Shown here one piece after another: positions 7,085 through 31,834 of a stretch of 64,000 nucleotides of DNA. The position numbers and the translations under genes were made by a program. Within the stretch, counting starts at the first letter, position 1. Every line of letters begins with the position of its first letter. Below the pieces are notes generated by a model that did no database searches, was not told the DNA's origin, and was given only the letters and a program-made list of their open reading frames with translations. The DNA is from an uncultured Gammaproteobacteria bacterium. GTDB lineage: Bacteria > Pseudomonadota > Gammaproteobacteria > Ga0077536. The DNA is taken from NCBI GenBank assembly GCA_963976285.1, contig CAXBJY010000008.1, positions 14,414 to 78,413 of the forward strand, given 5' to 3'.

Positions 7085-7447
7085 GATGAAACCGTTGCGT
7101 GGCTCTCGTGGTCGCAGCGTGCAGTATCCGGGCTTCCCGGCGCGACGCCAACTCGTCGTGCCCCGGCCTCGCGACAGTTCGCCAGCGCACGCGAAATTCA
7201 TGAAATAATGAACCGGCAGCGCGGCTTTGTTGTCACGCTAACAGTAGAAGCGGTCGCGAAACGCAATGCGGCGATGCCGGGAGCCGTTTTTCGGCAGTCC
7301 GGGGCATCCCGTGGCCACACGGCGTTTCGCGACCGCTTCCCGACGAAAAAAAGTAAACAAATTCGCCCGGCCGGCAACGGCGGGGCGCGCTGGTTCAGAA
7401 CGGGCGCTTGCGCATCGCCGCAGGCCCACCGAGGTAATGAATTAATC

Positions 7448-9250
7448 ATGTCCGACTGGAAGCGCGGCGCGCGGGTCGTGTTGATCGCGTTCGCCGTGCT
7501 GATCTTGCAGGGTTGCAGCCTGTTGCCGTGGTCCGCGGAAAAAAAAGCCGCCGCGGCCGCGGCGGAGGCCGCGCCGCAAATAAGCGCTGAAATTACCGGC
7601 ATCGACGGTGAGCTCGCGGCGAACGTACTCGCTCACCTGTCCGTTACGCACAAGCCGTGCACGATTTCCCGCGCTTATCTCTCGGTGTTCGAACAGCGCT
7701 CGCAGGACGAAGCGATCGAAGCGCTGCGGGCGCTCGGGTATTACGCGCCGGAAATCGACGTCAGCATGGAATCCGCGGACGCCTGCCCGCACGCACGGAT
7801 TCACGTCATTCCGGGGCCGCCGGTGCTGTTCGGCAAGATCAACATCGACATCCGCGGTGCCGCCGCCGGGGATCCGGATTTTCAGCAGCGCATCGAGGAC
7901 CTCGGACTCGAACCCGGGCAGCCACTGAACCACGAGAAGTACACCGGGGCGAAGCGACGCATCGAATCCGTCGCGCTCGAACTCGGGTATCTCGAGGGGA
8001 TCTTCGTGAAAAATCTGTTGCGGGTGAACCCGGAGCAGCGGATCGCGGATGTCACGCTCGCATTCGACAGCGGGCCACGCTACCGGATCGGTGACATCTC
8101 AATCGTGCAGGATCCCGATTTTCTCGACGAGGCGCTGATCCGCCGCTTCCTCGACAACGCGGCCGGCGAACCTTACAACGCCACGCGGGTTGCCGGATTC
8201 CACACGGCGTTAGCGCAAGGCGCGTATTTCAACCGCATCGACGTCCGTCCGAAACTGTCGGAAACGGTCGACGATACGATCCCCGTCGTCGTGACGCTGA
8301 CCCCGAAAGACCGCCACAAGTTTACGACCGGGGTCGGGGCCTCCACCGACGAAGGGATCCGCGGCCGGGCGTCGTACAAGAACCGGCGGGTCAACCGTTA
8401 TGGCCACCAGTTTGATGTCGCCGCGAATGCGTCGCTGATCGAGCAACGGTTTTCCGTCGGTTACAGCCTGCCGCGCGAACACCCGGTCGATGAATGGTTG
8501 ACGCTGCAGACCGGGGTCAGGCGCACGGACGTCGACACGTTCGATGCGATCGAGGCGCAGGTCGTATTGTCGGAAACGAAACGCCGTCCCCGGGGCTGGA
8601 TGGAAACCCGTTTTCTCGAATGGAACCGGTCGGATTTTGATGTCTCGTCGACGAACGATGCGACGGTTTTTCTCGCTCCGGGAGCTAAATGGCGCAAGAG
8701 CGCATCCAACCACGATCTGTTCCCGACCCGCGGTTACAGCATTGAATTCGAGGTGAAGGGCGCTGCCGACGCGCTGTTTTCAACCACGAGTTTCGCGCGC
8801 TCGAAGCTGCGCCTGTCGTCGGTCCTCGGACTCACGGAGCGCAGCCGCCTGCTGCTGCGCGGTCGCTTCGGCGCGTTGTGGGTTGACGAATTCGATCAAC
8901 TGCCGCCCTCGGAACGCTTCTTTGCCGGTGGTGACAACAGTATTCGTGGCTACGATATCGATTCGCTCGGTCCGGTCGACTCGAGCGGCGACGTCATCGG
9001 CGGCACCCAACTCGCCATCATCAGCGCCGAGGTCGACTATTACTTCACGGAGCGCTGGGGCATGGCCGCGTTCGTCGACTCCGGTAACGCGTTCGGTGGC
9101 GACGGCAGTGCCACGGGACTGCAGACCGGGATTGGCCTCGGCGTGCGCTGGCGTTCACCGATCGGTTCGATTCGGGTGGACATCGCGCACCCGCTCGACG
9201 ATACGTCGAACGACTTCCGCCTGCACCTGCGGATCGGACCGGATCTGTGA
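7448..9250 (+). CDS. tamA: translocation and assembly module outer-membrane protein TamA (Omp85 family)
   Basis: In-frame ATG within track ORF 5975..9250, downstream of the antisense overlap with the carboxypeptidase gene. MSDWKRGARVVLIAFAVLILQGC (signal/lipobox), POTRA-like repeats, and C-terminal beta-barrel ending …GSIRVDIAHPLDDTSNDFRLHLRIGPDL. Confidence 0.8.
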   Translation: MSDWKRGARVVLIAFAVLILQGCSLLPWSAEKKAAAAAAEAAPQISAEITGIDGELAANVLAHLSVTHKPCTISRAYLSVFEQRSQDEAIEALRALGYYAPEIDVSMESADACPHARIHVIPGPPVLFGKINIDIRGAAAGDPDFQQRIEDLGLEPGQPLNHEKYTGAKRRIESVALELGYLEGIFVKNLLRVNPEQRIADVTLAFDSGPRYRIGDISIVQDPDFLDEALIRRFLDNAAGEPYNATRVAGFHTALAQGAYFNRIDVRPKLSETVDDTIPVVVTLTPKDRHKFTTGVGASTDEGIRGRASYKNRRVNRYGHQFDVAANASLIEQRFSVGYSLPREHPVDEWLTLQTGVRRTDVDTFDAIEAQVVLSETKRRPRGWMETRFLEWNRSDFDVSSTNDATVFLAPGAKWRKSASNHDLFPTRGYSIEFEVKGAADALFSTTSFARSKLRLSSVLGLTERSRLLLRGRFGALWVDEFDQLPPSERFFAGGDNSIRGYDIDSLGPVDSSGDVIGGTQLAIISAEVDYYFTERWGMAAFVDSGNAFGGDGSATGLQTGIGLGVRWRSPIGSIRVDIAHPLDDTSNDFRLHLRIGPDL

Positions 9251-12200
9251 TGCGCGTGCGTCGCCTGCTTGCCTGGACCAGCGGCCTCGCGCTGACAATC
9301 GCGCTGGCCGTGTTGTGCGCCGCCTGGTACCTGACCGCAACGGAACCCGGCAGCCGCTGGCTCGTCGCACGCGCGCTGTCGTTCACCGGCGAACACACCG
9401 TGCGCATTGCGCGGATCCGCGGACGGCTGATCGATCACATCGAACTCACCGAGGCGGCCGTCGACGCGGCCGGGAGCCGGGTCAACGTGAGCGAACTCGC
9501 GTTCAGTTGGTCACCGCGGGCGCTGCTCACCGGCGAATTACTGATCGAGCGACTCCGCCTGGCCGGCGTCGAGGTCACGCCACCGCCACCGTCGGCAGAC
9601 AGCGAGCGCCCCACGGCCGTCTCGATCCCGGCATTACCGTTGCCCGGGACGATCCGCGACCTCACGCTGTTGCGCGTGACGATCCACACCCCGGATCAGG
9701 CTGTCGTGATCGACGAACTGAGCCTCGCCGCGAACTGGGATCGGGATCGCATGCAGCTGACGAACGTGATCCTGAACACCGGCGATCACCGGCTCACCGC
9801 GGACGCGATGCTCGGTATCGGTGACGCCGCCCGCCACGAACTCACTGCGAGCTGGCGCGGTAAACTCGGCGACGACCCCGCGTCCGCGACGATCGTCGCG
9901 GCCGGCCCGCTGCAAGCGCTGACGGTCGAGCTCGATGTCGACGGTCCGCTCACGGCGCAGATCGGCGGCAGCGTGCGTCCGCTCGAGGCCCGCCCCGGGG
10001 TCACGCTCAGCGGGCGCGTACAGGCGCCGCAAACCGGCGCTGCGGTGACGTTCGGTGATATCGATCTCGGTGTCGACGGCGATCTCGCGGCGCTCATCGT
10101 CAACGTCTCGACACAGGCGGGCCGCGCGGGCCGCGACGAGTACACGCTGACGGCGAGTGCCACGCTCGGCCTCGAAGCGACGGATGATGCAAGCGCGACG
10201 GTGAGCGTTGACTGGCGCGCCGTTCCGCTCACGGCGAAGCTGCCGACCGTTGCCGGCCACGGTCGATTTGCGCTCGCCGGCGAGCGCATCGCGCTGACGC
10301 ATACGACGGACGCGCCGCTGGCGACGAACCTCGCCGGCACGGTCACGCTCGGCGACCCCACCCCCGCGCTCGATGTGAAACTCGCGTGGCAGGACTTCGT
10401 GCTCCCGCTCGGCAGCGGTCAGGATATCGTCGGACGCAGCGGTACGCTGACGGCGGTCGGGACCCCCGATGCGCTCGCGCTCGTGATCGCCGGTTCGTTC
10501 GCGGGCACCCCGGTCGGCCCGGTCGACGTCGACGCCCGCGGCCACCTCGACAGTCAGCGCCTGAATCTCGAAACCCTGAGCGCGCGCCTGCTCGACGGCA
10601 CGATCGAAACCGCCGGCACGTTCGACTGGCGCGGCGAGCCCACGGCCGCCCTGCGCTTCAGCGGGCGCGAACTCGATTTCCGCCGTTTCCTCGCCGCATC
10701 GCCGAGCCGGGTCGGGTTTGCCGGTAACGGCACGTTCACCGCCGGCACGAACGGACCGCGCGCGACGCTCGAACTCGACAACGTCGGCGGCGAACTGCAC
10801 GGGCACGAAATTTCCGGCGCCGCGAGTCTGCGGACGAGCCCCGAGGCCATCGTCGTGGACCGCGCGCGGTTCGCGGCCGGACCCAACCGTCTGACTTTCC
10901 ACGGTACGTGGTCCGACGCGCTCGACGGTGAATTCGATGTCGCGCTGAGAGACCTCGGCACGCTCGACCCGCGGCTGTCCGGTTCGCTGACCGGTCAGGG
11001 AGCGGTGGGTGGCGCACTGCTGCGACCACGCATCGATGCGGCAATCGCGGGCCAGGGGCTCAAGTTCGATCGCTTCACCGCCGCGGATCTCGAGGCGAAT
11101 ATCGATATCGATCTGGCCCGCAGCGAGGCGTCGCAGGCGACGTTGAATTTTTCCGGTTTGACGCTCGACGGCGACACCCTCGGTGATGTCACGCTGCGCG
11201 GCAGCGGCACGGCCGCAGAACACCACCTGCGACTCTCGTTCGACGGCCCGCAGGCGTCGTTCGAAACCGCGGCGCAAGGCCATCTCGTCGACGACCGATG
11301 GTTCGGCGAAGTCGCCGAGTTCGATGCGACGTCGAGGATCGCGGGCGCCTGGAACCTGAGTTCACCGAGTTCGGTTTCCGTGAGCGGCAACGACGCCGTG
11401 ATCGCGGACACGTGTTTCGAATCCGGCGCCGCGCGCGTTTGTCTCACCGCGTCGCGCCTGCCGGCGGGCGGCAAGGCACGCGTCGCCATGACCGGCGTCC
11501 CGCTGGCCCTCGCGGATTACTACCTGCCGCGAACGCTGCGTCTGCGTGGCGCCCTGAATGGCGATGTTGAACTCGTCTACGACGACGGCGTGCTGACGGG
11601 CGCCGGGGCGCTCGCCGTTGCCGACGGAGTTGTCATGCGCGAGACCGCCGGCGCGGTGCCCGAGCAGGTTGCGATCGAGTCACTCGCGGGCAAATTCACG
11701 CTCGCGCCGGACGCGTTCACCGCCGAGGTGCAGGCGAACGTCGAACGCTGGCTCGACATCGACGGTGCCATCACCACCGGCCGCGCACCCGATGCGCCGC
11801 TCACCGGTACGTTCGCGGCACGCGCGACGAATCTCGTCTGGCTCGCGGAGTTTGCGCCGGAACTCGCGGGCACGGACGGCGAACTCGAGCTCACGTCGAC
11901 GATAAGCGGCAGTCGCGCCGCCCCGCGCGGTCAGGGCCGGCTGCGTCTTGCGAGCGGCGCACTCACGCTGCCCGATATCGGGCTCACGATCGCACGCTTC
12001 GATACAACGTTCGACGCGAGCCCGGAGGCCATCGTTTTCGACGCTGCGTTCGGCGCCGGCGACGGTGAATTGCGTGCGCGCGGCGACGCACGGAAACCGG
12101 CGGATGGCGCGCCGTGGAACTATACCGTCGAGCTCGGCGGCGAGGATTTCGCGCTCGTGCGGCTGCCGGAAGCGGAAGCCGACGTCAGCCCGGAGCTGAA

Positions 12201-13116
12201 ACTCGCGGGCGGAGACGAGGGCCTGCATGTCAGCGGCACCCTGAACGTGCCGCGCGTCGCGATCGATGTGAAACGCCTGCCGAGTTCCGCTGTCAGCGTC
12301 TCCGAAGACGAGATTATCGTTGCGAGTGACGACGCCGGGCTTGAAGAAACGGCGAACCGCGGCTTTATGACGGAATCCGTGAGCGGCGATGTCGCGATCC
12401 GGTTTGGCGACGATATTTCCGTCAACGGCTTCGGGCTGACGTCGAAACTTTCCGGGGCGGTCGACTGGAAAAAACGCCGCGGCGAAGCGCTCGGCCGGGC
12501 GTCCGGGAAAATCAGCATCGACGAGGGCGAGTTCAAGGCCTACGGCCAGCAACTCCAGATCGAAAACGGCCGCATCGTGTTCGCCGGGCCGGTCGATAAT
12601 CCGAATCTGAACCTGCGCGCTTACCGGCCGAACCTGGACGTCAAGGCCGGGGTCACGGTGCGCGGTACAGTAAGGGATCCGACAATATCGCTGTTTTCGG
12701 AACCGGTGCAGAGCGACGGGGATACGCTGTCCTACATCGTTACCGGGCGCGCCCTGAGCGATGCCTCGGCCGGTGAGTCATCCATGCTCGCGCAGGCCGC
12801 GTTGAGCCTCGGCGCGGAAGAATCCGCCGCGGTGACGAACCAGATCCGCGGCACGTTCGGACTCGATGAATTTTCCGTGAACGCGGGCACGACGGTTCGG
12901 GACACATCGCTCGTGGCGGGCAAGCGGCTGTCGCCGAAGTTGTCCGTGCGCACGGACTACAACCCGTTCGAACAGCTGTGGACGTTTTTTCTGAATTACA
13001 AACTCACGCCAAACTGGAGCGTCGAGGCGGAATCCGGCGAGCGCCAGGGTGCGGATCTGCTGTACAGCGTCGAGGGCGAAGATCTGATCGAAACGCTGTC
13101 GCCGTTCACGAAATAA
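9247..13116 (+). CDS. tamB: translocation and assembly module protein TamB (DUF490/AsmA-like, 1289 aa)
   Basis: ATGA overlap with tamA. N-terminal TM anchor MMRVRRLLAWTSGLALTIALAVLCAAWYL, a very long beta-rich repetitive body, and conserved C-terminal DUF490-like region (…LNLRAYRPNLDVKAGVTVRGTVRDPTISLFSEP…). Confidence 0.8.
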   Translation: MMRVRRLLAWTSGLALTIALAVLCAAWYLTATEPGSRWLVARALSFTGEHTVRIARIRGRLIDHIELTEAAVDAAGSRVNVSELAFSWSPRALLTGELLIERLRLAGVEVTPPPPSADSERPTAVSIPALPLPGTIRDLTLLRVTIHTPDQAVVIDELSLAANWDRDRMQLTNVILNTGDHRLTADAMLGIGDAARHELTASWRGKLGDDPASATIVAAGPLQALTVELDVDGPLTAQIGGSVRPLEARPGVTLSGRVQAPQTGAAVTFGDIDLGVDGDLAALIVNVSTQAGRAGRDEYTLTASATLGLEATDDASATVSVDWRAVPLTAKLPTVAGHGRFALAGERIALTHTTDAPLATNLAGTVTLGDPTPALDVKLAWQDFVLPLGSGQDIVGRSGTLTAVGTPDALALVIAGSFAGTPVGPVDVDARGHLDSQRLNLETLSARLLDGTIETAGTFDWRGEPTAALRFSGRELDFRRFLAASPSRVGFAGNGTFTAGTNGPRATLELDNVGGELHGHEISGAASLRTSPEAIVVDRARFAAGPNRLTFHGTWSDALDGEFDVALRDLGTLDPRLSGSLTGQGAVGGALLRPRIDAAIAGQGLKFDRFTAADLEANIDIDLARSEASQATLNFSGLTLDGDTLGDVTLRGSGTAAEHHLRLSFDGPQASFETAAQGHLVDDRWFGEVAEFDATSRIAGAWNLSSPSSVSVSGNDAVIADTCFESGAARVCLTASRLPAGGKARVAMTGVPLALADYYLPRTLRLRGALNGDVELVYDDGVLTGAGALAVADGVVMRETAGAVPEQVAIESLAGKFTLAPDAFTAEVQANVERWLDIDGAITTGRAPDAPLTGTFAARATNLVWLAEFAPELAGTDGELELTSTISGSRAAPRGQGRLRLASGALTLPDIGLTIARFDTTFDASPEAIVFDAAFGAGDGELRARGDARKPADGAPWNYTVELGGEDFALVRLPEAEADVSPELKLAGGDEGLHVSGTLNVPRVAIDVKRLPSSAVSVSEDEIIVASDDAGLEETANRGFMTESVSGDVAIRFGDDISVNGFGLTSKLSGAVDWKKRRGEALGRASGKISIDEGEFKAYGQQLQIENGRIVFAGPVDNPNLNLRAYRPNLDVKAGVTVRGTVRDPTISLFSEPVQSDGDTLSYIVTGRALSDASAGESSMLAQAALSLGAEESAAVTNQIRGTFGLDEFSVNAGTTVRDTSLVAGKRLSPKLSVRTDYNPFEQLWTFFLNYKLTPNWSVEAESGERQGADLLYSVEGEDLIETLSPFTK

Positions 13117-13129
13117 CGGCCGCGCTCGC

Positions 13130-13333
13130 TCACCGATCGAATTCGAGTTCGACCACCGGTTGCGTGATCCCGGACGCCGCCTGCGCGTGCCACTCGATAC
13201 ACCATTCGGTGCAGAAGATGAGGTCGGCTTGCTGTTCGGACGCCGACGTGAGGCCGGCGTCGTAAATGAGCACGCCGCAGTTATCACACTTCACGTACTT
13301 TTCGATGTAGTAACCGTTCTCCGCGAAACGCAT
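13130..13333 (-). CDS. 67-aa Cys-rich mini-protein (Zn-ribbon/TRASH-like; acetone-carboxylase-gamma-like partner of hydantoinase B)
   Basis: MRFAENGYYIEKYVKCDNCGVLIYD…ADLIFCTEWCIEW: CxxC … FCxxxC motif. Its ATG overlaps the TGA of the upstream hyuB (TGATG), implying translational coupling. Confidence 0.55.
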   Translation of the reverse strand: MRFAENGYYIEKYVKCDNCGVLIYDAGLTSASEQQADLIFCTEWCIEWHAQAASGITQPVVELEFDR

Positions 13334-15060
13334 CAGCGATGTCCCCCGTCAGGGCCGCCGGCCCCGTAGTCGCGCGCCGCCACCGCGGCGCTGATGAACC
13401 CGTCGTCGACATCCGCGGTCACGCGCGCCGGATCGCGCGCCGCGGGCTCGCCCCAGCCGCCACCACCCGGGGTGAGCAGGCGGATCCGCTCGCCCGAGCG
13501 GATCCTCACGTTCGACCATTTGCTCGTCGAGCGCTTGTTGAAGGCTTCCACCATCGTCTGCCATTCGGTGCCATCGGCAGCCTGGTACAGGGTTTGTCCG
13601 GCCGCGCCGGGCCCGCCGCCTTCGAGGCCCCAGGCCTGGTGGTCATGGCGATCGGTCAGTTGCGTGCACGTAATCTCCGCGTCGAGACAACGCCAGGTCT
13701 TGCTCGTGCCGAGACCGCCGCGGTATTGCCCCGCGCCACCGGAATCGGCGCGCAGGCTGTATTCCTCGGTGAGCCAGGGGTAGCGCGTCTCGAACACTTC
13801 GACCGGGATCACGCGGCAGTTCCCGTTGATCGAATCCGTCGCATTGTTGCCGTCGGCGAACGGCCGCGCGCCCCAGCCGACGACTTCGATGTCGTAGCAC
13901 GCGAAGTATTCGTTGTTCTTGACGTCCTGTCCGCCGAACACGAAATTCAGATGCGTGCCGCCTTCCGCCGCCATGCCGCGCGCCGGATCGGCCTGTGCCA
14001 GCGCGCCGATCACGGTACCGGCGATGCGCGGATGCGCTTCGGTGTTACCGCCGACTTCCGGCGCGGGATAATCGACGTTCACGATCGACCCGCGTGGTGC
14101 GATCACCTTGATCGGGCGGAAGCACCCGGAGTTTTTCGGAATCGACGGATCCGTCAAATGCAGGATCGCGTTGTACGTGGCCGACCACGCCACCCCGAGC
14201 GTCGCGTTGATCGGCCCCGCCACCTGCGGCGTGCTGCCGGTGAAATCGACGACGATGCGCTCGCCGCGTACGTGGCAGTGCGCCTCGATGCGGATCTCGC
14301 TGTCGGACACGCCGTCGTTGTCCATGTAGTCGACGAAGTCGTAGCGGCCGTCCGGGATGTCCGCGATTTCCGCGCGCATGCGCGCTTCCGCGTAGTCCAT
14401 CAGATCCGCGCACGTGCGTTTGAACACATCGATACCGTACTTGCGCACGATCTCGCCGAGACGCTCGGCGCCCTGCTCCACCCCGGCGATCATCGCGCGC
14501 ATATCGCCGTAGTTGTAACGCGGCGTGCGCACGTTCGCGAGCCACAGCTTCCACACTTCCGCGACGTCTTCACCGCGCTTTTTGATCTTCACCGGCGGCA
14601 CCCGGATACCTTCATGGAAAATCTCCGTCGCCTCCGACGGGAAGCCGCCCGGCACCATGCCGCCGACTTCGGCGACGTGGCCGATCGCCACGGTGAACGC
14701 AACGAGTTCATCGTCGACGTAAACCGGACAAAACAACGTGTGTTCCGGCGTATGCAGGCCACCACGGTACGGATCGTTGTGCACGATCACGTCGCCGGGT
14801 TCGATCTCGCTCAAGGGTATTTCCTCGAGACACGAGCGGATCAGCAGCGGCATGCCGCCGATCTGCGCCGGGCAGAATTCCGCCACCGCGAGCATTTCCC
14901 CGATTGGCGAAGCAATACCGCACGTGAAATCGAGCGCTTCATTGAAAATCGTCGAGTACGAGGTTTTCATCAGCGTGATGCCCATTTCGCGACACGCCGA
15001 AATCATCGTGTTCTCGATCACGTTCATCGTCACGAGATCCATCGAAGCGTTTGTGTTCAT
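13333..15060 (-). CDS. hyuB: hydantoinase B / oxoprolinase family protein (HyuB, 575 aa)
   Basis: Met 90 of track ORF 13333..15327, with GGGAGAAGAG SD upstream. MNTNASMDLVTMNVIENTMISACREMG… DPYRGGLHTPEHTLF… typical HyuB. ATGA overlap with hyuA stop. Confidence 0.85.
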   Translation of the reverse strand: MNTNASMDLVTMNVIENTMISACREMGITLMKTSYSTIFNEALDFTCGIASPIGEMLAVAEFCPAQIGGMPLLIRSCLEEIPLSEIEPGDVIVHNDPYRGGLHTPEHTLFCPVYVDDELVAFTVAIGHVAEVGGMVPGGFPSEATEIFHEGIRVPPVKIKKRGEDVAEVWKLWLANVRTPRYNYGDMRAMIAGVEQGAERLGEIVRKYGIDVFKRTCADLMDYAEARMRAEIADIPDGRYDFVDYMDNDGVSDSEIRIEAHCHVRGERIVVDFTGSTPQVAGPINATLGVAWSATYNAILHLTDPSIPKNSGCFRPIKVIAPRGSIVNVDYPAPEVGGNTEAHPRIAGTVIGALAQADPARGMAAEGGTHLNFVFGGQDVKNNEYFACYDIEVVGWGARPFADGNNATDSINGNCRVIPVEVFETRYPWLTEEYSLRADSGGAGQYRGGLGTSKTWRCLDAEITCTQLTDRHDHQAWGLEGGGPGAAGQTLYQAADGTEWQTMVEAFNKRSTSKWSNVRIRSGERIRLLTPGGGGWGEPAARDPARVTADVDDGFISAAVAARDYGAGGPDGGHR

Positions 15061-22822: not shown

Positions 22823-22984
22823 ATGGAACTGATTACGCCTGTTCGTGATTGCGGCGGTGCCGCGTGGCAATGGCTGCAGCGGCTCGCCGGCCCGCATGAA
22901 CGGATCTGTCGCCATCGGGAGTGGACGAAGTTCGGCACGTACTCGGAGCAGATGCTGTGTCGTCTGCTCGATGACCTGTGCTGA
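22823..22984 (+). CDS. 53-aa Cys-rich hypothetical protein
   Basis: MELITPVRDCGGAAWQWLQRLAGPHERICRHREWTKFGTYSEQMLCRLLDDLC. GGAGAG SD immediately after the HiPIP stop codon (TAG-GAGAGCAAC-ATG). Four Cys. Below ORF-track cutoff. Confidence 0.45.
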   Translation: MELITPVRDCGGAAWQWLQRLAGPHERICRHREWTKFGTYSEQMLCRLLDDLC

Positions 22985-23016
22985 TCTGCGTCGCGATCGC
23001 AACCGTACCCCCCGTA

Positions 23017-23916
23017 ATGAACCCATCACCCCGCACGGCTGCACCTCCGGTCACCGTCTACTTCGACGGCGACTGTCCGGTGTGCAGCCGGGAGATCGGC
23101 TGGTACCGGCGCTGCCGCGGGGCGGAGTCGGTCGCCTGGGTCGACATCCACGGCACTGCGTTCGCACCGGCTTGCGGCCTCACCCGCGACGCCGCGCTCG
23201 CCGAACTGCATGTGCGCGGGTCGGATGGTTCAGTCGTTACCGGCGTCGATGCGTTCGTCGAGTTGTGGCGCGAGTTGCCCGGCTGGCGCTGGCTCGCGCG
23301 CCTCGCGGCGCGCCGCGGGGTCAACCGGGTGCTCAAACGGGGCTACGCCGTCTTCCTGTGGTGGCGCCAGCGTGGCGACGCTACGGCGCCGGCATTTACC
23401 GCGCTTCCGACTCCGGTGCAGCGTGACTTGCGTTCGAATCACGCCGGTGAACTCGGCGCCGTGTGGATCTATCGCGGCATCCTGACGGCCAGCCGCGATG
23501 CGCAACTGCGGCACTTCGCCCGACGTCACCTGGCAACCGAGCAAACCCATCTCGCGCTGATGCGCGCACGTGTGCCGTTGCGCCGGCGCAGCGTCTTCGG
23601 GCCGATCTGGATCCTCGCCGGCTACGTCACGGGACTGCTCCCGGCGCTTGCCGGCAAGCACGCGGTCTACGCGACCGTCGCGGCGGTCGAGGCGTTCGTC
23701 GATGAACACTACCGGCAGCAGATCGAATACCTCGACAAGCAATCCGGTTGCGCCGATTTGCGCGCGCTGATCAACCGTTGTCACGCCGACGAGATCAACC
23801 ATCGCGACGAAGCGCGCCGCGCAGCGGGCGCGCCTGCCGGGCGGTGGCTCGACGCGTGGATCAAGCTCGTCACAAACACCTCACGCATCGCGGTGCGGAT
23901 CGCGCGCCGCGCGTAA
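23017..23916 (+). CDS. coq7: fusion protein: N-terminal DCC-family thiol-disulfide oxidoreductase domain (DUF393) + C-terminal Coq7-type di-iron demethoxyubiquinone hydroxylase domain
   Basis: Met 14 of track ORF 22978..23916 (alternative GTG 22978 overlapping the upstream stop). VYFDGDCPVCSREIGWYRR…WVDI = DCC signature. C-terminal half has NHAGELGAVWIYRG, ATEQTHLALM, AAVEAFVDEHYRQQ and DEINHRDEA, i.e. the E…ExxH…E…ExxH ligand set of Coq7/CLK-1. Confidence 0.75.
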   Translation: MNPSPRTAAPPVTVYFDGDCPVCSREIGWYRRCRGAESVAWVDIHGTAFAPACGLTRDAALAELHVRGSDGSVVTGVDAFVELWRELPGWRWLARLAARRGVNRVLKRGYAVFLWWRQRGDATAPAFTALPTPVQRDLRSNHAGELGAVWIYRGILTASRDAQLRHFARRHLATEQTHLALMRARVPLRRRSVFGPIWILAGYVTGLLPALAGKHAVYATVAAVEAFVDEHYRQQIEYLDKQSGCADLRALINRCHADEINHRDEARRAAGAPAGRWLDAWIKLVTNTSRIAVRIARRA

Positions 23917-29115: not shown

Positions 29116-31161
29116 ATGGATCCGATCACGTTTTCGATCATTCGCCACCGCCTGTTCCGGATCGTCGACGAGGCCGTGATCACGCTGAAGAACGTGTCCG
29201 GCAGCGCGATCACGAACGAGGGTCACGACCTCATGGTGTCGCTGTACCGCGCGGACGGTTCGCTGCTCATGGGCGGGGTCGGATTCCTGCACCATCTCAC
29301 GAGCGCCGCCGAGGCCTGCCAGTCGATCATCCGTCGCTTCAAGGGTCGCATCGAACCCGGTGACGTCTACCTGCTGAACGATCCGTACACCGCCGCGCTG
29401 CACACCTCGGACGTGTATCTCGTGGCCCCGATCCACGTCGGCGACGAACTCGTCGCCTGGAGCGCGTGTTTCGTCCACGTCTACGACATCGGGGCGAAGA
29501 ATCCCGGCGGTTTCTGCCCCGATGCCGACAGCATTTATATCGAGGGCTTCAGCTCGCCGGGGATCCGCCTCGTGCGGCGCGGCGAAATCAACCGCGACGT
29601 GTTCGATACGCTCATGAACATGGTGCGCTCGCCGGAAATGGTCGCGCTCGACATCTCCTCGATGATCGCGTGCAACAACGTCGCCCGCGAACGCATGGTC
29701 GCGCTCGTCGAGAAATACGGCGCCGCGACCGTCGACGCCGCGTGCTCGGCCCTGATCGAGAATTCCGAAACGAAACTGCGCGAACGCCTGCGGAGCCTGC
29801 CGGACGGCCAGTGGCGCTCGCGCCAGTACCTGAACGTCGGCGAGGACATCTCGCGCATTTGCCTCACGATGACGAAGCGCGACGACGAACTGCACTTCGA
29901 TTTCACGGGTTCGAGCGCGCAGAGCCCGTATGCCGTGAACTGCACGCAATGGGCCTCGCTCGGCGGCCTGTTCGCGCCGCTGTTCCCGCTGCTGTGTTAC
30001 GACATCACGTGGAACGAAGGCGTGATCCGGCCGATCCGCATGACCGCCCCGGCCGGTTCGATCGTGAACTGCACGCGCCCGGCGCCGGTGTCCGTCGCCA
30101 CGGTCGGCGCGATCCAGTCCGTGAACAATGCCGCGTGCGCGACGATCGGCAAGCTGCTCGCCACGAGCGATGAGTACCGGCGCGAAGCGACGGCGGTGTG
30201 GCATGCGAACCATTTCGCGATATTCAAATTCGGCCGCAACCAGCACGGGCGTGATGCGATCGGGATCCTGACGGAAACGTTCGCCGGCGCCGGCGGCGCG
30301 CGCACGTTCGCCGACGGGATCGATGTCGGCGGCGAGATCCCGAATCCGATTTCACGCATGGCTAATGTTGAAACGATCGAAAACCTGTTTCCGATCCGCT
30401 ACCGCTATCGCCGCCTCAGAACGGATTCCGGCGGCGCCGGACGCTATCGCGGCGGCGCCGGTATGGAACTCGCGATCACGGCGCACGATGCGCCGGACGG
30501 CGGCATCCACTACGTCGTCTCCGGCAAGGGCGCAGCGTTCCCGATGAGCGACGGCCTCGGCGGCGGCTACCCGGGCGCGCCGAACGCGTATTACTGGCAC
30601 GCCGCGGACGGTACGACGCAAGCCGTGGACTGGGGCGTATTTCCGCTGTTCGGCGAGGACGCGCTCGAAGTGCGCTGGAATGGCGGCGGCGGGGTTGGTG
30701 ACCCGTTGCAGCGCGACCCGCGCGCCGTGGCCCGCGACGTCACGGCCGGCCTCGTGTCCGGCGATGCCGCGCGCGAGTTGTACGGGGTCGTCATCGCGGG
30801 CGCGGACGTCGATGCCGCGGCGACGACGGCGGCCCGGGCCGCGATCCGCGCCAGCCGGCTCGGCGGCACCGCACCGGAGGCGAACGACCCAGTCCCTGAT
30901 GCCGCGATCGTCTTCGATGGCAAAACGGTTGCCTGCGCCGCCTGCGGGCAGCATCTCGCCGATCCGGGCAGCGCGTGGAAGACCGCTGCGCGGCAGGTCG
31001 CACGCACGATGTCCGGCGTGATACCCGCCTATACGACGATCGCGGCGGTGAGCTTGCGCGAATTCGTCTGCCCGGGCTGCGCCACCGTGCTCGACACCGA
31101 AACCGTGTGCGACAACGATCCCCCCTTACTCGATTACCTTGGAGTCATTCCCGATGCATGA
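29116..31161 (+). CDS. hyuB: hydantoinase B family protein (second copy, 681 aa) with ~100-aa C-terminal Zn-ribbon-like extension
   Basis: MDPITFSIIRHRLFRIVDEAVITLKN…DPYTAALHTSDVYL… = HyuB. The tail …GKTVACAACGQHLADPGSAWK…REFVCPGCATVLDTETVCD carries CxxC…CxxC, absent from the 575-aa paralog. Confidence 0.85.
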   Translation: MDPITFSIIRHRLFRIVDEAVITLKNVSGSAITNEGHDLMVSLYRADGSLLMGGVGFLHHLTSAAEACQSIIRRFKGRIEPGDVYLLNDPYTAALHTSDVYLVAPIHVGDELVAWSACFVHVYDIGAKNPGGFCPDADSIYIEGFSSPGIRLVRRGEINRDVFDTLMNMVRSPEMVALDISSMIACNNVARERMVALVEKYGAATVDAACSALIENSETKLRERLRSLPDGQWRSRQYLNVGEDISRICLTMTKRDDELHFDFTGSSAQSPYAVNCTQWASLGGLFAPLFPLLCYDITWNEGVIRPIRMTAPAGSIVNCTRPAPVSVATVGAIQSVNNAACATIGKLLATSDEYRREATAVWHANHFAIFKFGRNQHGRDAIGILTETFAGAGGARTFADGIDVGGEIPNPISRMANVETIENLFPIRYRYRRLRTDSGGAGRYRGGAGMELAITAHDAPDGGIHYVVSGKGAAFPMSDGLGGGYPGAPNAYYWHAADGTTQAVDWGVFPLFGEDALEVRWNGGGGVGDPLQRDPRAVARDVTAGLVSGDAARELYGVVIAGADVDAAATTAARAAIRASRLGGTAPEANDPVPDAAIVFDGKTVACAACGQHLADPGSAWKTAARQVARTMSGVIPAYTTIAAVSLREFVCPGCATVLDTETVCDNDPPLLDYLGVIPDA

Positions 31162-31834
31162 TGCCGATGTCGGTGCGGATATCGTCGAGCGCGTCATGGC
31201 GCGCCGCGGCCGCTACCATATTTATGATCAGATCGAGGCCGCGAAATCCGCCCTGATCGTCGTCGATATGCAGAACGCGTTCTGCAAGCCGGGCGCGCCG
31301 GCGGAAGTCCCGGCCTCGCGCGGTATCGTCGCGAACATCAACGCGCTCGCGAAGACCCTGCGCGGCGCGGGCGGGCAGGTGATCTGGATCGTCAGCGTGT
31401 TCGATGCCCGCAGCGGCCGCAGCGACTGGGAAAACTTCTTCAATCACATCGTCGCCGCGGACGTGCGCGAGCGCACGATGGCGAACATGGCGCCCGGCGG
31501 TGACGGCACGTTCCTGTGGCACGAAATGGACGACCACGACGAGGACAGCCTGATCGAGAAGAACCGCTACAGCTGTTTCGCGCCCGGCGCTTCCCAGCTC
31601 GAACGCATCCTGCGCAGCCGCGGGGTCGAGACCGTGATCATTACCGGGACGAAAACGAATATCTGCTGCGAGACGACGGCGCGCGCCGCGTTCGACATGG
31701 ATTTCAACGTCATCATGGCGAGCGATTGCTGCGCGGCCCTGTCCGATCGCGAACACGTCGCCGCGCTCGAAAACATCATTCAGCAATTCGGTGATGTGAT
31801 GACGAGCGAGGAGATCGCTGAACGCCTCGCGTAA
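31154..31834 (+). CDS. isochorismatase-family cysteine hydrolase (N-carbamoylsarcosine amidase-like)
   Basis: Met 6 of track ORF 31139..31834 with GGAG SD. …SALIVVDMQNAFCKPG… (Asp), …TGTKTNICCETTARAAFDMDFNVIM… (catalytic Cys within an isochorismatase-like fold). 8-nt overlap with hyuB. Confidence 0.75.
   Translation: MHDADVGADIVERVMARRGRYHIYDQIEAAKSALIVVDMQNAFCKPGAPAEVPASRGIVANINALAKTLRGAGGQVIWIVSVFDARSGRSDWENFFNHIVAADVRERTMANMAPGGDGTFLWHEMDDHDEDSLIEKNRYSCFAPGASQLERILRSRGVETVIITGTKTNICCETTARAAFDMDFNVIMASDCCAALSDREHVAALENIIQQFGDVMTSEEIAERLA

Follow-up and report, generated by a model that had tools for sequence, protein, structure and literature searches.

Does the small four-cysteine protein encoded at the end of a bacterial hydantoinase-type operon belong to the same family as the four-cysteine tail of a second such enzyme on the same contig, or has each enzyme gained a partner of its own? 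The window analysed here, a stretch of 64,000 nucleotides from an uncultured gammaproteobacterium, encodes two hydantoinase-like enzymes, each with a third small Cys4 component, which is a fused domain assigned to the gamma type in one and a separate mini-protein with TRASH-like features in the other (Table 1). The initial annotation regarded these components as the fused and the split form of one zinc-binding module related to the gamma subunits of acetone and acetophenone carboxylases, and it read the difference between the two loci as the record of a gene fusion or fission.

Table 1. Positions of the features of the two hydantoinase-type loci in the window
Feature	Position	Strand	Details
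Mini-gene, predicted TRASH-like Cys4 protein, 67 aa	13333..13130	minus	ORF; stop codon 13130-13132
Cys codons of the mini-gene, predicted metal-binding core	13199..13288	minus	C16/C19 at 13277-13288; C41/C45 at 13199-13213
SD-like GGGGGA	13342..13347	minus	within the hyuB1 3' end, 8 nt ahead of the mini-gene ATG
hyuB1, beta subunit, 575 aa	13333..15060	minus	PF02538, 601.6 bits; longest ORF 664 aa
hyuA1, ATP-binding alpha subunit, 678 aa	15057..17093	minus	Hydant_A_N, Hydantoinase_A, Hydant_A_C
hyuA2, alpha subunit, 700 aa	27009..29111	plus	Pfam domains; 31% identical to hyuA1
hyuB2, beta subunit with fused gamma domain, 681 aa	29116..31161	plus	PF02538 residues 2-530; PF08882 residues 606-673
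Gamma-type Cys4 domain at the C-terminal end of HyuB2 (fusion)	30931..31134	plus	PF08882 residues 606-673; Cys 607, 610, 652, 655
Isochorismatase-family cysteine hydrolase	31139..31834	plus	PF00857; overlaps the hyuB2 end

Both loci encode HyuA/HyuB-type enzymes of the hydantoinase/oxoprolinase kind with an added four-Cys module, as had been proposed: the full Pfam domain sets (Hydant_A_N, Hydantoinase_A, Hydant_A_C and Hydantoinase_B) are matched far above the cut-offs in both pairs, whose genes are adjacent in the order A-B. The length first given for HyuB1 stands, as the reading from ATG 15060, which overlaps the hyuA1 stop (ATGA by coordinates), covers the whole Hydantoinase_B profile. Upstream of locus 1 lie genes for an FAD monooxygenase-like and an NAD-binding protein, which are not conserved at other loci. 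Among solved structures, HyuB1 comes closest to N-methylhydantoinase (7hk5, 298 bits) and the caprolactamase subunit CapB (6yra_B, 271 bits), and HyuB2 to CapB (207 bits), N-methylhydantoinase (174 bits), Apc (163 bits) and Acx (128 bits). In the caprolactamase CapA/CapB equivalog test, the four subunits reach 335, 565, 252 and 490 bits against 1000, and both pairs are also far under the acetophenone carboxylase equivalog cut-off (NCBIfam). Hydantoinase-type members of the superfamily are described as having two genes only, with gamma absent (PMC5214803). HyuA1/HyuB1 and HyuA2/HyuB2 share their domain sets and best matches with N-methylhydantoinase, caprolactamase CapAB and 5-oxoprolinase, but these enzymes, as described, have no third Cys4 component, whereas both enzymes of the window have one.

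The extra CxxC...CxxC tail of HyuB2, correctly recognised at the outset along with the length of 681 residues, extends for about 85-100 residues past the Hydantoinase_B domain with the pattern CxxC-x41-CxxC. Pfam family PF08882 (Acetone_carb_G) is matched with 22.8 bits in full HyuB2 and with 27.6 bits by the tail alone, at a cut-off of 21. A profile built from 21 diverse tails and two stand-alone homologues matches two solved structures, 5m45_C (acetone carboxylase gamma subunit, E=7e-9) and 5l9w_C (acetophenone carboxylase small subunit, E=3.8e-6), and the tail as modelled by AlphaFold2 (pLDDT 92) consists almost wholly of beta structure. Conservation of the tail cysteines among HyuB2 orthologs, on which the initial annotation had made its reading depend, is found as well: three are invariant across all 71 distinct tails, 69 of which also have the fourth. 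Family profile, four conserved cysteines and the predicted gamma fold identify the tail as a genuine acetone/acetophenone-carboxylase gamma domain, homologous to AcxC gamma (5m45_C/5svb_C) and to the acetophenone carboxylase small subunit (5l9w_C), with the same Cys4 pattern and fold. AcxC is a separate protein of 168 residues, whereas the HyuB2 gamma domain has about 85 residues and is covalently fused. In solved structures, gamma is a Cys4 zinc protein that sits on the beta-type subunit at a site remote from the active centres; its role in the carboxylases is described as unclear, and that of its zinc as probably structural (PMC5214803; PMC5543143).

The host of this gamma domain differs from Acx and Apc, being hydantoinase/lactamase-like by its subunit lengths and nearest relatives. 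Its components follow the order A-B-gamma as in Acx, but the core has about 590 residues versus about 720 and more. The cysteine hydrolase encoded next has RutB (8bkd, E=8e-19), biuret hydrolase and N-carbamoylsarcosine amidase (1nba, E=1e-11) as its best solved relatives, and because this carbamoyl-amidase-like neighbour is conserved, HyuA2/HyuB2 can itself be read as hydrolase-like. The arrangement suggests that HyuA2/HyuB2-gamma may open a cyclic ureide or amide, the product of which the next enzyme would decarbamoylate. The isochorismatase-family gene starts in the last hyuB2 codons, at TTG 31139 or at an ATG near 31154 (31139-31161), which suggests translational coupling to the HyuB2-gamma fusion.

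Split forms of the HyuB2 tail do exist in other genomes. With only the tail as query, a word-indexed search for homologues gave no matches, whereas full-length HyuB2 retrieved them. Among the best 120 HyuB2 homologues, 75 are fused (at least 660 residues, tail present) and 45 are short (607-620 residues), ending before the tail and being 73-78% identical over the core. Three short homologues from other metagenomes were looked up, and 3/3 have a separate gene for a protein of 90-93 residues that begins before hyuB has ended, with 4 bp in common in L084 and L086. The product matches PF08882, at about 33 bits in the latter two loci, and aligns end-to-end with the window tail at 33-39% identity; in two of the loci (L086 and a JGI locus), the isochorismatase-family gene comes next, as in the window. 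By these matches, the true split form of the HyuB2 tail is the PF08882 gene of 90-93 residues and not the mini-protein. As fused and split gamma loci are found in different genomes, a fusion or fission must have taken place; the initial reading of split versus fused states is hence right for the gamma domain between genomes and wrong for the two loci of the window, between which no such event is recorded.

The mini-gene is a real gene under purifying selection. Its product has the sequence MRFAENGYYIEKYVKCDNCGVLIYDAGLTSASEQQADLIFCTEWCIEWHAQAASGITQPVVELEFDR, with cysteines at positions 16, 19, 41 and 45. A database search yielded 54 clusters of relatives, mostly 65-72 residues long, 53 of which were aligned (47-93% identity). 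Across these 53 homologues, 21 residues are invariant, all four cysteines among them: M1, F3, G7, Y8, Y9, I10, E11, Y13, K15, C16, N18, C19, G20, L22, I23, Y24, C41, W44, C45, W48 and G55. Against three moderately diverged homologues (61-77% identity), dN/dS is 0.12-0.24. A spurious ORF in GC-rich DNA, which was also considered, is ruled out by the conservation and the dN/dS. The exact protein sequence of the window occurs in 23 public contigs, where it is unnamed or labelled hypothetical.

Coordinates bear out the TGATG overlap of this ORF with the hyuB stop, locus 1 lying on the minus strand: the ATG of the mini-gene (13333-13331) has one base in common with the TGA of hyuB1 (13335-13333), and positions 13330-13335, gcatca on the plus strand, read TGATGC on the minus strand. 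Purine-rich GGAG-like runs are present at the site equivalent to the SD-like sequence in most of the homologous loci shown. The mini-protein would be made from a hyuA1-hyuB1-mini-gene operon by translational coupling. On the other side of the mini-gene, its stop (13130-13132) and that of a convergent tamB-like gene, which ends at 13116, are 13 nt apart (13114-13132), too close for a separate terminator hairpin to fit between the operons. This neighbour, encoding a 1289-residue TamB, and a gene for a TamA-like Omp85/POTRA protein (together 7400-13116) adjoin locus 1 on the opposite strand and appear unrelated to the mini-gene and its enzyme.

Four cysteines, a CxxC knuckle and attachment to a HyuB are features of both the mini-protein and the HyuB2 tail, and BLASTP finds just 7/16 identities between them, around one CxxC. 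A common origin, in which the mini-protein would represent the C-terminal tail of HyuB2 in its split state and be homologous to the AcxC/Apc gamma subunits, is nevertheless extremely improbable. Aligned by hhalign, the two families reach a probability of 29% over 13 columns, the first knuckle of one being registered on the second knuckle of the other, and the modules are therefore without detectable homology. PF08882 is absent from the window mini-protein (E up to 1) as well as from the families matched by its 53 relatives, whereas the genuine split gamma genes match it and align with the tail over their full length. The motifs differ (x21 and CxxxC in the mini-protein versus x41 and CxxC in the tail), as do the predicted folds, which are a treble clef with one helix versus an all-beta Yippee-like domain; the mini-protein lacks the gamma pattern, a Yippee-like beta fold in which about 40-50 residues separate two CxxC knuckles. 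An alignment of the mini-protein, tail and gamma families, which had been suggested as a check, accordingly joins the tail to gamma and leaves the mini-protein without a detectable relation to either, and the homology claimed for it falls. With gamma subunits, from which it differs in motif, spacing and fold, it shares only the general idea of a small Cys4 protein encoded with and attached to a beta-type subunit. The mini-protein and the HyuB2 tail are, by prediction, unrelated zinc modules, each a different four-Cys partner gained by a hydantoinase-type enzyme.

The TRASH motif, as reportedly defined by Ettema et al. (2003), is C-x2-C-x19-22-C-x3-C, which the CxxC-x21-CxxxC of the mini-protein fits; the spacing in its relatives is x20 or x21 in 49/53, x22 in two, x19 in one and x18 in one. 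In a profile scan the window mini-protein has zero Pfam or NCBIfam matches. Weak matches among the 53 relatives are to TRASH_HVO_1752_C (PF24273) in 29, zf-FCS in 17, Arc_trans_TRASH in nine and YHS in three; the best for PF24273 has an E-value of 4.5e-6, the PF24273 and zf-FCS matches are all under the gathering scores, and the precomputed database annotation places PF24273 on 5/54 clusters. The AlphaFold2 model of the mini-protein (pLDDT 87) has two knuckles and one helix in a treble clef-like arrangement, with residues 1-10 modelled at low confidence in isolation (pLDDT 61), although the N-terminal segment, MRFxxNGYYIExY, is highly conserved. Judged from motif, profile matches and model, the family is TRASH-like and not gamma-like, and its four cysteines are predicted to bind metal.

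The mini-protein is comparable to TRASH, zf-FCS and YHS proteins (ZMYM5 2das, archaeal CopM and CopT, eL24) in its motif and to CopM (56-71 residues) in its size, and its predicted fold, which resembles a treble clef, may be that of the ZMYM5 TRASH domain and eL24. It differs from them in that the matches of its relatives all stay below the Pfam gathering score, in the extra MRFxxNGYYIExY segment and the invariant W44 and W48, and in its genomic context, which is that of an ATP-dependent amidohydrolase instead of metal resistance or transcription. Some stand-alone members of 65-72 residues are labelled '5-oxoprolinase/N-methylhydantoinase B' in IMG (P0044, P0045, P0047, P0048, P0280-P0282), a misleading label that was probably transferred from TRASH::HyuB fusions.

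In a scan of one genome per species, the mini-protein family is present in 157/185,579 genomes, which are MAGs without exception and belong mostly to Alpha- and Gammaproteobacteria, with few Binatia and Acidobacteria. In the best 80 loci, the mini-gene adjoins hyuA/hyuB of the same clade in 74, and the HyuB beside it is 58-96% identical to HyuB1. The genes are shuffled: the mini-gene (m) follows the pair as in the window (A-B-m; 19 loci, plus variants), lies inside it (A-m-B; 15 loci, plus variants), precedes it (m-A-B; eight loci) or stands between it and a second, divergent pair upstream (a-b-m-A-B(-B); 15 loci). On the HyuB side, metagenomic proteins of at least 77% identity with enough downstream DNA have the mini-gene directly 3' in all but L108, in a scan that fetched a 4-kb flank; should the clade of 70-73% identity have an m-A-B-B layout, its mini-gene would fall outside that flank. 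No other neighbour family recurs in more than 11/81 loci in a neighbourhood clustering, which was used for that negative alone, being based on crude longest-ORF calls in high-GC DNA with spurious antisense ORFs. The a-b-m-A-B-B layout is seen in many alphaproteobacterial loci (L006, L013, L016 and L019; for example L006:3134-12802), where the mini-gene is directly preceded by a divergent hyuA'-hyuB' pair (about 38-39% identity) and the cognate hyuA is followed by two hyuB genes in tandem (64-65% identity to HyuB1).

In nine loci (L030, L036, L042, L056, L059, L073, L077, L081 and L083), the module is instead an in-frame N-terminal extension of HyuB, and 7/9 of these fusions are full-length, with 637-649 residues. 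In the L036 protein (L036:7001-8944), the Hydantoinase_B domain is intact at residues 84-615. Similar fusions occur in independent metagenome proteins (P0069, P0076, P0102, P0085 and P0098). An exhaustive profile search of 1.84 billion representatives returned only 98 clusters of the mini-protein family; several of the longer ones are N-terminal fusions to Hydantoinase_B, and a C-terminal fusion to HyuB was seen in none.

Persistent linkage, translational coupling and natural fusions are classically taken to mark proteins that interact physically. Since the linkage of the mini-gene to hyuAB survives gene-order shuffling and comes together with coupling and fusions, we favour, with moderate confidence, the reading that the TRASH-like Cys4 mini-protein is a dedicated partner of HyuB in one HyuAB clade and serves as a structural zinc subunit analogous to gamma. 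It would bind HyuB at about 1:1 in an enzyme of the ATP-dependent hydantoinase/lactamase type, with the conserved N-terminal segment and the invariant Trp residues as the candidate interface; zinc occupancy and a structural rather than metal-delivering role are presumed. Fusion to HyuB is N-terminal for the mini-protein and C-terminal for gamma, so that the docking site, and with it the role, may differ between the two. Two further observations weigh against a partner. The orphan mini-genes L034, L039 and L072, which have full flanks, lack hyuAB within 7 kb, and how closely a mini-protein resembles the window copy does not follow the identity of its HyuB; this correlation is weak and uninformative (Spearman rho 0.19, p=0.13), mini-protein identity saturating near 50%.

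In the main alternative, the TRASH motif and TRASH-family matches would belong to a metallochaperone or metal-sensing factor, which would transiently deliver or buffer the catalytic metal of HyuB; in relatives, this metal is Zn, Mn, Fe or Ni. CopM proteins (56-71 residues), in which TRASH stands alone, have been proposed as metal-binding parts of archaeal copper-resistance clusters (PMC3595675), and HyuB-type subunits hold a catalytic metal, proposed to be Zn in CapB (PMC8453981) and Mn or Fe in acetone carboxylases (PMC5543143). Mini-gene copies away from hyuAB would also suit such a factor. The TGATG coupling and the covalent N-terminal fusions are better suited to a stoichiometric subunit, although a tethered chaperone domain is still compatible with them, and no metal transporter or regulator is conserved near the mini-gene in 81 loci. 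A tetrahedral Cys4 site is, moreover, typical of inert structural zinc. On balance, we consider delivery or buffering of metal a possible but rather unlikely function.

A function independent of the enzyme, for example as a small regulator that is linked to hyuAB by operon history, would account for the orphans and for the faster evolution of the mini-protein. Two orphan genes (L039:7001-9439 and L072:4588-7003) stand tail to tail with a gene for a PLP-dependent enzyme (PALP), followed by one for a luciferase-like monooxygenase, on the other strand. Across loci, the mean identity is 54% for the mini-protein versus 67% and 61% for the enzyme subunits, and in L088 (metagenome contig MRWG01002822.1, 1290-5250), which is near-identical to locus 1, the mini-protein is 93% identical while HyuA and HyuB are 99% identical. 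Independence is improbable all the same, given that the linkage to hyuAB is kept through three gene orders in MAGs of Alpha- and Gammaproteobacteria, Binatia and Acidobacteria, that nine independent in-frame fusions to HyuB exist, and that profile scans find no DNA-binding domain in the mini-protein.

A broader and more speculative proposal, which we rate as unlikely, is that the beta subunit acquired two unrelated Cys4 modules in separate events and in different branches of the superfamily, a Yippee-like gamma in one case and a TRASH-like mini-protein in the other, each occurring split and fused. If this were true, a small metal-binding partner would be a general functional need of these enzymes, for instance for loading or guarding the catalytic metal of the beta subunit or for the control of assembly, and the TRASH protein would be a convenient experimental handle on what the gamma subunit does. 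Two different metal-binding folds attached independently to the same subunit would then provide a comparative route to gamma function.

The literature search found no paper on a TRASH domain or any third small protein with hydantoinases or oxoprolinases, nor on PF08882 fusions, N-methylhydantoinase with a zinc finger, or acetone carboxylase gamma with hydantoinase B. The TRASH-like partner is, by its predicted features, an undescribed accessory protein of a known enzyme family, non-homologous to gamma. Should HyuA2/HyuB2 be of the hydrolase type, a gamma domain would be found in a hydrolase, contrary to the generalisation that hydantoinases lack gamma. Should the mini-protein act as a subunit or in maturation, it would have to be included whenever this HyuAB clade is expressed heterologously for lactam or hydantoin biocatalysis. 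Its family deserves a name in annotation pipelines, where it now appears as hypothetical or mislabelled as N-methylhydantoinase B. Elsewhere in the window, a single ORF (22975-23916) encodes two domains, one of them a DCC1-like thiol-disulfide oxidoreductase and the other COQ7 (ubiquinone biosynthesis hydroxylase).
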